NCBI GenBank assembly: GCA_951406725.2
Contig: OX597827.1
Coordinates: 8,494,001 to 8,558,000 of the forward strand
DNA from: Octopus vulgaris
Taxonomy: Eukaryota
Length of the DNA: 64,000 bases
Reading direction: 5' to 3'
This document shows positions 874 through 38,476 of the stretch, in pieces. The notes beneath the pieces were generated by a model, which had not been told where the DNA came from, searched no databases, and worked only from the letters and a program-made list of their open reading frames with translations. The translations under genes were made by a program, and so were the position numbers. The first letter of the stretch is position 1. The number at the start of each line of letters is the position of its first letter.

Positions 874-1895
874 CACTTTGGCATTCATATTACTCTGTTG
901 ACTGAAATGTTTATTTATCCACATTGTTTGGAATTAAACATTCATTACCTCATACCTATTTCTTTATTACCCACAAGGGGATAAACATAGAGGGGACAAA
1001 CAAGGACAGACATAGGTATTAAGTCGATTACATCGACCCCCCAGTGCGTAACTGGTACTTAATTTATCGACCCCGAAAGGATGAAAGGCAAAGTCGACCT
1101 CTGCGGAATTTGAACTCAGAACGTAAAGACATACGAAATACCCATTTCTTTCTTACCCACAAGGGGCTACACATAGAGGGGACAAACAAGGACAGACATA
1201 GGTATTAAGTCGATTACATCGACCCCCAGTGCGTAACTGGTACTTAATTTATCGACCCCGAAAGGATGAAAGGCAAAGTCGACCTCGGCGGAATTTGAAC
1301 TCAGAACGTAAAGACAGACGAAATACCTATTTCTTTACTACCCACAAGGGGCTAAACATAGAGGGGACAAACAAGGACAGACATAGGTATTAAGTCGATT
1401 ACATCGACCCCCAGTGCGTAACTGGTACTTAATTTATCGACCCCGAAAGGATGAAAGGCAAAGTCGACCTCGGCGGAATTTGAACTCAGAACGTAACGAC
1501 AGACGAAATACCTATTTCTTTATTACCCACAAGGGGCTAAACATAGAGGGGACAAACAAGGACAGACATAGGTATTAAGTCAATTACATCGACCCTCAGT
1601 GCGTAACTGGTACTTAATTTATCGACCCCGAAAGGATGAAAAGCAAAGTCGACCTCGGCGGAATTTGAACTCAGAACGTAACAATAGACGAAATACCGCT
1701 GAGCATTTTGCCCGGCGTGCTAACGTTTCTGCCAGCCCGCCGTCTTATTACCTCATACCTTTGAGATTTCAATAATGTGGTTGTTTAGTTTTAGAATGAC
1801 ATTGTAGGGTAGGTAGGAGAAGCTGGATCAGATCAGTTTGGCCATTAAACAGGCAGAATATTTTGGCTGGATACAGTCAGTTTACATTTAAAGGG
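874..1895. mobile_element. Old TTAA-flanked (piggyBac-type) MITE hosting the family B array
   Basis: TTAA-CACTTT at 870 and AAAGGG-TTAA at 1890-1899. The short TIRs are degenerate. Confidence 0.4.
958..1746 (-). mobile_element. Family B SINE (tRNA-like head, Meta-like domain) as a tandem tetramer
   Basis: One head at about 1700-1746 plus four about 185 bp units. 14 bp TSD ATTACCTCATACCT at 944-957 and 1747-1760. The domain CTTTCATCCTTTCGGGGTCGATAAATTAAGTACCAG resembles the MetaSINE domain (from recall). Confidence 0.88.
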
Positions 1896-3733: not shown

Positions 3734-4686
3734 ATTCACTTTGTCAAAATGCTACAGAATAGAGATGCAAACAAACCAACATTGGTTGTCAAGCAGCAGG
3801 ACACACGCATACGCACACATGATAGGTTTCTACTTCTACAACAGAAGACACTCACATAAGATACCACATGACGAGATTCAACCTGAAACCTCACGGTTGT
3901 GAACTTCTTAACCATGAAGCCATAACTGCTACAATAAGTGTACTGACAGTAACTTATACAAGTACAATGAACTTAAGCCAGATGGTACATACTTATGAGC
4001 ATGCATGTTCATCTGTATGTGTGTGTGTGCATGCAGGAATGTATGAAATGCATATATGTAATGAGTAAAGATATGGCAACTGTTGTATTGATGAGGCTTA
4101 ATGAGACAGAAACATGTGACTGTAGCCACCTGCCTTTTGTTTCCAGATAAAACATTCCAACTTTCTCTACAAGAATGCTTATTCTGGAAAATGTTTCATT
4201 GTCTCTTATTCCCTTTTCAGTCAGTTACAGTTACCACCAGACATTCGTTTGCAGTTTCTCAAAGCAAAAAAATAATTTCAGTTAACCAAGTATTTAATTA
4301 GTATAGTATTTAAAATATCTCTTTTCATCTGTGTATGTATATATGTGTATATCTACACACAAATGTATGTGTATATATATATATATGTAAGTACCTCCCC
4401 CCCACACACACACACACGTGTTTGTGTGTGAATGTATATGTATGCACATATGTATTTCGTATAGGCCAGCAAGTCCAGTGCTGAACTGGTATTTATTTTG
4501 TCAAACCCCAAAACGATGAATGGCAAAGATGAATGACTTCAGCAGAATAAAATTGAAATGAAACCTTGATAACAGACTTGGAGATAGGTGCTGCTCAGCC
4601 CTTCAGAAAAGGAATGTACTAAGTGGACCCATTTTGGCATCAATCCATTTGGTCACATATTTTTTTGATACTAGAAATTAACATAT

Positions 4687-13826: not shown

Positions 13827-15161
13827 AGGCGGTGAGCTGGCAGAATCGTTAGCACGCCAGGTGAAATGCTGAGCGGTATTTTGTATGCCGCTACGTTCTG
13901 AGTTCAAATTCCGCCGAGGTCGACTTTGCCTTTCATCCTTTCGGGGTCGATAAATTAAGTACCAGTTTCGCAATGGGGTCGATGTAATCGACTTAATCCC
14001 TTTGTCTGTCCTTGTTTGTCCCTCTAAGTTTAGCCCCTTGTGGGTAGTAAATAAATAGGTATTTCATCTGCCGCTACATTCTGAGTTCAAATTCAGCCGA
14101 GGTCGACTTTGCCTTTTATCCTTTCGGGGTTGATAAATTAAGTACCAGTTTCGCACTGGGGTCGATGTAATTGACTTAATCCCTTTGTCTGTCCTTGTTT
14201 GTCCCCTCTATGTTTAGCCCCTTGTGGGTAGTTAATAAATAGGTATTTCGTCTGCTGTTACCTTCTGAGTTCAAATTCCACCGAGGTCGACTTTGCCTTT
14301 CATCCTTTCGGGGTCAATTAAATAAGTACCAGTTTCGCACTGGGGTCGATGTAATCGACTTAATCCCTTTGTCTGTCCTTGTTTGTCCCCTATATGTTTA
14401 GCCCCTTGTGGGTAGTAAATAAATAGGTATTTCATCTGCCGCTACATTCTGAGTTCAAATTCCGCCGAGGTCAACTTTGCCTTTCATCCTTTCGGGGTCG
14501 ATAAATTAAGTACCAGTTTCGCACTGGGATCGATGTAATTGACTTAATCCCTTTGTCTGTCCTTGTTTGTCCGCTCTATGTTTAGCCCCTTGTGGGTAGT
14601 AAATAAATAGGTATTTCATCTGCCGCTACATTCTGAGTTCAAATTCAGCCAAGGTCGACTTTGCCTTTCATCCTTTCGGGGTCGATAAATTAAGTACCAG
14701 TTTCGCACTGGGATCGATGTAATTGACTTAATCCCTTTGTCTGTCCTTGTTTGTCCCCTCTATGTTTAGCCCCTTGTGGGTAGTTAATAAATAGGTATTT
14801 CGTCTGCTGTTACCTTCTGAGTTCAAATTCCGCCGAGGTCGACTTTGCCTTTCATCCTTTCGGGGTTGATAAATTAAGTACCAGTTTCGCACTGGGGTCG
14901 ATGTAATCGACTTAATCCCTTTGTCTGTCCTTGTTTGTCCCCTCTATGTTTAGCCCCTTGTGGGTAGTTAATAAATAGGTATTTCGTCTGCTGTTACCTT
15001 CTGAGTTCAAATTCCACCAAGGTCGACTTTGCCTTTCATCCTTTCGGGGTCAATTAAATAAGTACCAGTTTCGCACTGGGGTCGATGTAATCGACTTAAT
15101 CCCTTTGTCTGTCCTTGTTTGTCCCCTCTATGTTTAGCCCCTTGTGGGTAGTAAATAAATA
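13827..15161 (+). mobile_element. Family B SINE as a tandem heptamer, nested in a decayed family A SINE
   Basis: One head plus seven about 184 bp units. Perfect 16 bp TSD TATATTATAACTCTGA at 13811-13826 and 15162-15177. The host SINE halves (about 13722-13826 and 15178-15208) rejoin across the insertion. Confidence 0.92.
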
Positions 15162-36618: not shown

Positions 36619-37168
36619 TGATGCAGTACCAGGCAGTGGCTCACATGGCTTCTGATCTTAACTGATTGGAAGTGTTATCATGTACATTGTTTTGTCTTGG
36701 TATAAAAGATGGGCTACAGCAAATATTCTGCTCAATACCACAGATTTGCTTGTCAGTTGTTTGACCGTAACCCGTTGAGCATGTCCCTTAGTGGCTGACG
36801 ATATGTGCATCTCTGATCACGAGCAGAAGTAGTGGGGGAGCATCATAGCCATGTGTTGAGAGGGATTCTTTGGGGTTTGAATAGTTCACCTCTGGAAACA
36901 TGGGTGGTCTTTCAACATCCTTAAACAACCCTTATTCAGGGACCGTTTGAGCGGGATGGGCTACTCAACCTGAAGAAAATTCTAACTGGGCCCCACCTGC
37001 AAGGTCATGTGCTGTTTATCTTGATATGAGATCACCATGTCGCACACATATGGTTGTGATGCATGTGCCTGGTGTACCTTTATCAGACAGGTAGTCATGA
37101 TGGGTATATTGGGCTTCGTATATTTTACCCCAGTGTCACTTTGATAGCATGAACTGCTCTCTCACTCA
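36619..37168. mobile_element. About 550 bp unclassified insertion within a (TAA)n tract
   Basis: GC-richer block with sharp ends, in-phase (TAA)n on both sides, no TIR. Confidence 0.5.
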
Positions 37169-37194
37169 ATAATAATAATAATAATAATAATAAC

Positions 37195-37972
37195 AATCCT
37201 TTTCTTTTCTACTATAAGCACAATGCCTGCAAATTTTGGAGGAGGAGGCTAGTCGATTACATGGAGCTTAGTACTTGACAGATACTCTACTTTATTAACC
37301 CCGAAAAAGATGAAAGACAAAGTTGACCACAGTGGAATTTGAACTCAGAGTGTAGCGGCTGACGAAATACCTATTTCTTTACTACCCACAAGGGGCTAAA
37401 CACAGAGAGGACAAACAAGGACAGACAAACAGATTAAGTCAATTATATCGACCCCAGTGCGTAACTGGTACTTATTTAATCGACCCCGAAAGGATGAAAG
37501 GCAAAGTCGACCTCGGCGGAATTTGAACTCAGAACGTAGCAGCAAACAAAATACCTATTTCTTTACTACCCACAAGGGGCTAAACACAGAGAGGACAAAC
37601 AAGGACAGACAAACAGATTAAGTCAATTATATCGACCCCAGTGCGTAACTGGTACTTATTTAATCGACCCCGAAAGGATGAAAGGCAAAGTCGACCTCGG
37701 CGGAATTTGAACTCAGAACGTAGCAGCAAACAAAATACCTATTTCTTTACTACCCACAAGGGGCTAAACACAGAGAGAACAAACAAGGACAGACAAACAG
37801 ATTAAGTCGATTATATTGACCCCAGTGCGTAACTGGTACTTATTTAATCGACCCTGAAACGATGAAAGGCAAAGTCGACCTTGGCGGAATTTGAACTCAG
37901 AACGTAGCGGCAGACAAAATACTGCTAAGCACTTCGCCTGGCGTGCTAACGATTCTGCCAGCTAGCCACTTT
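37195..37972 (-). mobile_element. Family B SINE array: head, three young units and one old unit with a different tail
   Basis: GTCGACC at about 37506, 37690 and 37874. Diverged terminal unit at 37195-37371. Confidence 0.88.
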
Positions 37973-38014
37973 CAAATGATAATAATAATAACGACGATGA
38001 TGATGATGATGATG

Positions 38015-38226
38015 GTTTCAAATTTTTTCACAATGCCAGCAATTTCAGGGAATGCATCAATCAATTACATTGATCCCAGTGCTCGACTAGTACTTAGTTT
38101 ATTGGCCCTGAATTGATGAAAGATAACGTCAACCGCAGAGGAATTTGAACTCAGAATGCAATAACAGACAAAAATGCCACTAAACATTTTGCCCTGTGTG
38201 CTAAGGATTCTGCCAGCTCCCTGCCT

Positions 38227-38261
<35 letters not shown>

Positions 38262-38476
38262 CCTTTCTACTAAAGGCACAAGTCCTGAAATTTTGGGGGA
38301 GGGGACTAGTTGATTACATTGGCCCCAGTGTTTCACTGGTACTTAATTTATTGATTCCAAAAGGATGAAAGGCAAAGTCGACCTCAGTGGTATTTGAACT
38401 CAGAACATAGTGGCAGATGAAATACTGCCGAGCATTTTGTCCAGTATGCTAGCAATTATGCCAGCTCGCCGCCTTT
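38015..38476 (-). mobile_element. Two older family B SINE monomers with the alternative tail
   Basis: Copies at about 38015-38227 and 38260-38476 share head and Meta-like domain but end in ...CAAAATTTCAGG.CTTGTGCC...(ATT)n-type tails. Confidence 0.8.

Follow-up and report, generated by a model that had tools for sequence, protein, structure and literature searches.

In the 64,000-nt stretch of the Octopus vulgaris genome analysed here (contig OX597827.1, positions 8,494,001 to 8,558,000; hereafter the window), a tandem array at 37195..37972 probably arose when an old SINE with a B2 tail was hit at nt 48/49 by a young SINE with an A tail through target-primed reverse transcription, after which the units multiplied locally. 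The age contrast between the units, the fixed join, the identity of units 2 and 3, the family-wide preference for the site, and two-head intermediates duplicating nt 49-65 were directly observed. The array and its surroundings are laid out as follows.

37924..37971, minus strand: the only SINE head of the array (nt 1-48), bearing an A-box-like motif
37740..37923, minus strand: unit 1, young A-tail, a core with a B-box-like motif and a LINE-like tail; 6/118 private core changes
37556..37739, minus strand: unit 2, young A-tail; 4/118 private core changes
37372..37555, minus strand: unit 3, young A-tail, same sequence as unit 2, probably its local duplicate; 4/118 private core changes
37195..37371, minus strand: terminal unit, the old B2-tail resident SINE from nt 49 onwards; 17/118 private core changes
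37168..37197, minus strand: (TTA)n run, 3′ of the B2 tail
38012..38226, minus strand: old C-tail SINE monomer, 20% diverged, whose (ATC)n/(TTA)n tail flanks the array upstream
38258..38474, minus strand: old B2-tail SINE monomer, 11% diverged, with the tail type of the terminal unit

Units 1-3 are 184 nt each, and every unit consists of a 118-nt core and a tail. The young A-tail units are 3-5% diverged and the old B2-tail terminal unit is 14% diverged, while the head has 5 private changes in 48 positions. Thus, the preliminary description of three young units and one diverged terminal unit behind one head is borne out by the core changes (6, 4, 4 and 17 of 118). It also named a standard AAATA junction. 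All unit junctions read AAATA/GGTATTT and lie at nt 48/49 of the element, but the full GGTATTTCGTC occurs only at the last one, the other two having GGTATTTTGT. Likewise, the terminal tail type ascribed to the older neighbours is found in the monomer at 38258-38474, whereas the nearer one at 38012-38226 has a third type, C. The array lies inside an ATT/ATC repeat, a setting shared by 8 of 30 B2 monomers but by none of 70 A elements, and no TSD in unique sequence was found around the array at this locus. Directly after the B2 tail, a young repeat of about 550 bp lies between ATT runs (36620-37167); its 3′ 200 bp has many copies of 97-99% identity genome-wide.

The SINE is a short, non-coding, high-copy interspersed element of about 230 nt. 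I analysed a random sample of 160 evenly spaced 10-kb stretches (1.6 Mb, mostly from large chromosomes, of a 2.8-Gb genome), in which 328 cores were found and one head and core are common to four tail types (A, B1, B2, and C). The median monomer divergence is 5.4% for A (n=46), 10.4% for B1 (n=16), 13.9% for B2 (n=25), and 16.3% for C (n=49). The motifs in the head and in the unit, which I take to be A-box-like and B-box-like, respectively, were recognised by eye against the consensus. No tRNA or Rfam match for the SINE was obtained with ARAGORN and Rfam, and folding of the A tail was not significant (z 0.23). In 34 of 62 A elements, TSDs exceeding the 99% null were detected; they vary in length, with a mean of 15 bp. 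The SINE presumably shares its host group and head type with OK, OR1, and OR2. These are tRNA-derived SINEs of Octopus named in sections of PMC4824008 and PMC4758252.

Among 296 loci of the random sample, 27 are arrays, of which 11 are mixed, seven are pure A, and nine have an unresolved terminal tail. Most have two units (22/27) and the others three (5/27). Extrapolation of the 27 arrays and 11 mixed arrays in 1.6 Mb to the whole genome gives roughly 47,000 arrays, about 19,000 of them mixed-age. The window has pure-A arrays at 958-1745 (minus strand, four units) and 13827-15161 (plus strand, seven units). Each has one head, a perfect TSD of 14-16 bp around the entire array, and units homogenised within the array.

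Where do the young A copies land? Of 87 A-tail ends in the 1.6-Mb sample, 32 join nt 49 of the SINE and three join nt ~15, while the others lie before GGTA-like words elsewhere (15), TAT (13), AGAA (9), or other sequence (15). SINE nt 49 accounts for 89 of 8434 GGTA words, and the odds for A insertion there, counted by locus, are about 170 times what the frequency of the motif would give. A genome-wide search for two-head intermediates, in which a head is followed by nt 49-65 and then by a new head, gave 47 exact matches and 0 in the control, although the exact pattern favours young copies. Thirteen of the 14 distinct two-head loci that were read hold an A unit and the junction. Non-consensus letters are present in both copies of the nt 49-65 duplication at five loci (L219, L222, L225, L228, and L231), whereas the two copies disagree at three (L218, L229, and L230). 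At the self-site of another locus (L289:125-243), a whole 5S rRNA copy lies between the SINE head and a full-length A unit. This reverse-transcription chimera points to template switching. The likely route is retrotransposition at a fixed site.

Several other features of the head were noted. A second self-target exists at nt ~15, where A copies join a resident head before AGAA (L062, L083, L126, L225, and L292). The targets differ among tail subtypes, A1 being mostly at AGAA (8/16), A3 at GGTA (9/10), and A4 at TAT (4/7). At least three tandem heads with a 65-bp period precede the first unit at L220 and L226. On the minus strand of another sampled locus (L078), near 4334-4361, a 27-nt tail fragment is joined to head nt 44-47 by a 4-nt microhomology without a TSD. 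Joins of the head to AGGTC were considered as 5′-truncated insertions and set aside; in three of eight the upstream copy mismatches the resident, and these joins may be deletion variants.

The order of ages was assessed in a set of 53 one-head mixed arrays, 43 of which, including the array described here, came from similarity searches. Arrays with an unresolved terminal tail, nine of them in the random sample, were left out, as were the two-head loci L194 and L217 from the head-origin and age tests and simple-repeat flanks from the TSD counts. In 40 arrays the oldest unit is the last one, whereas in eight the last is younger than the others and five are tied (p=4e-6). In the random sample, the last unit is the oldest in 9 of 10 mixed arrays. 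No head-less A unit was found behind a B or C tail (0/105). The predicted position of the oldest unit at the 3′ end is thus seen in mixed arrays, but pure-A arrays have no age order (6 vs 7 of 14). The polarity is that of an old resident standing last, not a ladder of ages.

Outer TSDs are detectable in 19 of 41 mixed arrays, 34 of 62 A elements, and 21 of 87 B/C monomers. Their mismatches amount to 39/321 in mixed arrays, 29/518 in A elements (p=0.001), and 34/361 in B/C monomers (p=0.27). Since the outer TSDs of mixed arrays are as decayed as those of old B/C monomers, the site is older than the insert. The earlier proposal that insertion took place at about nt 47 of a resident old copy is therefore well supported, with the join placed at nt 48/49. 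That young A units inserted into a pre-existing old B2-tail copy is the reading followed below.

If the head and all the units had instead moved as one composite SINE whose internal units were homogenised afterwards, a single B-type TSD around each mixed element and a head usually of the incoming type would be expected. Both are seen, and some terminal units are indeed as young as the A unit. However, decay of the outer TSDs is double that in A elements. The terminal units share at most three private changes (62 units) and form no families; since no set of such changes recurs among them, they were not copied from a composite master. The terminal unit of the present array has no paralogue above 86% among 40 scored. 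In addition, its last 61 nt are present with one difference in run X2, where the summed junction depth relative to the core is about 20-fold below that of runs X1, X5, and X16, although summed contig depth is not copy number. This pattern hints that the resident predates the A burst. A composite origin is therefore very improbable. No empty orthologous allele was seen in runs X1, X15, X2, X16, and X5, in which no contig spanned the junction and paralogues flooded the search.

Some observations do not fit a simple insertion. Terminal units are younger than free monomers of the same type (7% vs 10-16% in the random subset), which counts against the proposed explanation. In a change-point fit, 79% of the 3′ switches fall after nt 97 and not at nt 49 as simple insertion predicts, although this fit is confounded (32% in the B1 control) and the loci were selected by BLAST. 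The last two units share private changes in 12 of 53 arrays (null 4.1), which indicates that later local exchange blurs the record. These anomalies may be due in part to such exchange, to intact targets being preferred, or to a degree of DNA-level conversion. At L010, L082, L123, and L211, the private changes common to the last two units lie close together, in about 20 nt of the core, the size of a TSD. Such clusters could stem from short conversion tracts or from insertion guided by homology to internal positions.

The sharing of private changes by the last two units, together with the many terminal units that remain A-like well past nt 65 in the change-point fit, would also be expected if a break in an old monomer had been repaired by gene conversion from an A array elsewhere, without reverse transcription. 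This is improbable as the main route. The 5′ switch never lies after nt 66, and reverse transcription is required to explain both the 5S chimera and the 17-bp duplications of the two-head loci. Moreover, the resident of the present array is 14% diverged, a poor substrate for conversion, and it looks old from nt 49-96 on.

If a complete A copy was inserted into a resident SINE, why is only one head left? Among 79 headed arrays, only two or three keep two heads (the third is just under the cut-off), and 76-77 have one. According to the head change-point fit, 83% (90% interval 64-91%) are wholly of the incoming type, 17% switch in nt 25-66, and none switches after nt 66; control A monomers are scored as wholly incoming-type in 79-86%. 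The proportion is 63% for B2/C residents, which have real markers, and 54% for 10 random arrays. In the present array, head nt 25-48 are A-like, that is, of the incoming type, while nt 1-24 are equally likely to be resident or incoming. Thus, the old resident head has usually been overwritten by the incoming head. The preliminary description had the 5′ end resolved by homology to the resident head, which is likely given the one-headed arrays, but the head that survives is mostly the incoming one. Its suggestion that new units are kept behind an existing promoter head is not supported by these heads, nor by the B-box-like motif, which lies within the unit and not in the head.

An insertion that first made two heads, one of which was later deleted between the adjacent repeats of about 65 bp, is unlikely, though less so than gene conversion. 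Two-head loci do exist (the 47 exact matches), and the mosaic heads have switch points inside nt 1-66, as a between-head deletion would give. On the other hand, two-head inserts are no younger than one-head inserts (0.035, n=14, vs 0.040, n=53; p=0.99, n=14 for the two-head loci) even though the pattern favours young copies, and first units of 0-2% divergence are already one-headed. The lack of an age difference mildly favours homology-primed joining during insertion over slow later collapse. A head-less circular template was also considered and rejected. It would require the 5′ and 3′ switches to coincide at nt 49 or later, and its relative likelihood for this array is 0.004. The earlier argument that a single circular template cannot give the pattern stands, since the 5′ switch is never beyond nt 66 and most heads are of the incoming type. 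Unit 1 has a T4 run at nt 53-56. Pol III terminates at such runs and may now stop at this one, so the array is probably not a donor.

How did one insertion become three young units? Units 2 and 3 do not differ at any position, unit 1 differs from them at 9 of 184 positions, and no identical copy of units 2/3 was found elsewhere among the 40 best candidates scored (best 98%). Judged from the assembled sequence, unit 3 is probably a recent local tandem duplication of unit 2, although it may be an assembly artefact. Units 1 and 2 share two CpG-type changes that occur together in only 2 of 190 other A units and in 0 of 23 of the same subtype, and 8.8% of same-subtype A pairs are as close as these two. 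It is likelier that units 1 and 2 are of one origin than that they represent two insertions. Serial insertion of all three units was thus rejected for unit 3 and is unlikely for units 1 and 2, and the serial, polarised growth formerly proposed for this locus does not hold; the pure-A arrays are likewise unordered. Of the 38 neighbouring A-A pairs, 12 do not exceed the 1st percentile of the between-locus distance, while 14 are no closer than unrelated copies. Both growth routes therefore occur across loci.

LINEs that encode endonuclease and RT domains have 3′ ends about 80% similar to the A tail. The best match of the LINE ORF2 among solved structures (PDB) is L1 ORF2p, and from this match the A-tail-like LINEs would be L1-like. 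None of 40 loci of LINE relatives fetched by protein search is at the SINE site, most being in (CTAT)n, and two guessed tail patterns retrieved no LINE. A second tail family with an A-like 3′ end (the L275-L282 repeat family) is at the SINE site in 0 of 7 other loci, and no LINE was found in the 16 of 44 matches read for a head-plus-foreign pattern. An L1/Tx1-like LINE family (L235-L274), which has a tail similar to the A tail and some members with an open ORF2 of about 1130 aa, is nearly always located in (CTAT)n.

The following mechanism may account for the array. An L1/Tx1-type LINE protein would nick the head at nt 48/49 and again about 17 nt downstream (~nt 65). Because the SINE contains its own target, the upstream end matches the end of the new cDNA, and the cut upstream strand would be complementary to it. 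This strand would pair with the cDNA end and prime second-strand synthesis. Such pairing would leave no second head, and the incoming head would usually overwrite the old one. Units 1 and 2 probably derive from one event, either a dimeric RNA, re-copying of one RNA, or an early duplication, and unit 3 would have been added by the recent tandem duplication.

Comparable systems are described in the available parts of several papers. The crocodilian SINEU-3/Tx1-Mar has a site preference inside another repeat, attributed to Tx1-type LINEs, and its tandem insertions arise sequentially (PMC4494074). SINEU-3 and the octopus SINE are alike in preferring a target sequence within a repeat. However, the SINEU-3 target is a Mariner and whole tandem copies are split by TSDs, whereas the octopus SINE targets its own head, with a partial preference (32/87 ends), and yields head-less units (cf. 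sections of PMC4494074). Drosophila R1 arrays grow when a new element enters the TSD that lies 5′ of a previous one, and for R1 and R2 it was proposed, in the portion of PMC2718515 consulted, that the 5′ end of the RNA includes target sequence, whose annealing to the cut target makes the junctions precise. The growth of the octopus arrays and the proposed homology-primed 5′ joining resemble these cases. In contrast, as far as that portion of PMC2718515 goes, R1 and R2 are autonomous, reside in 28S rDNA, and use 6-27 nt of homology, while the octopus SINE is non-autonomous, with about 65 nt of self-homology and tens of thousands of dispersed sites.

Squamate SINE-derived satellites (PMC10702118) and the TSD-(SINE)n-TSD of Scapharca broughtonii (PMC11481361) are attributed, in the sections consulted, to duplication or recombination within one SINE. 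Like the octopus arrays, they have a single head, repeats truncated at the head, a terminal unit that differs from the rest, and homogenisation within the locus. Unlike in these squamate and clam arrays, as described there, the first octopus junction brings together, at a fixed retrotransposition site, two subfamilies that differ in age. A SINE-derived satellite would have at least four middle monomers and within-locus homogenisation. The present array has two middle units; homogenisation is seen in the identity of units 2 and 3 and in the 12 of 38 close adjacent A-A pairs. The open literature searched yielded no account of a SINE that targets its own head for insertion, and the consulted sections of PMC13282606 do not mention such arrays.

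The 5′ end joining and second-strand priming of non-LTR elements are poorly understood. I lean, if only somewhat, toward the view that a SINE carrying its own landing site homes into its old relatives, where pairing over about 65 nt of cDNA overwrites the head and pushes the old body in the 3′ direction, seeding the arrays extrapolated above. Site-specific non-LTR retrotransposition itself is known; what is new is the testing of a self-targeting SINE by age, target duplication, and head origin. Here the cDNA end equals the cut target in tens of thousands of natural events, and subfamily markers separate the old strand from the new one, which makes 5′ joining and second-strand priming testable from genome sequence alone. 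The pattern also suggests an origin for one-headed SINE arrays other than recombination, and it is a warning that repeat dating is misled by such arrays, which are chimeras of mixed age. If this view is true, decayed copies would be rejuvenated and SINE satellites would have an origin driven by retrotransposition.
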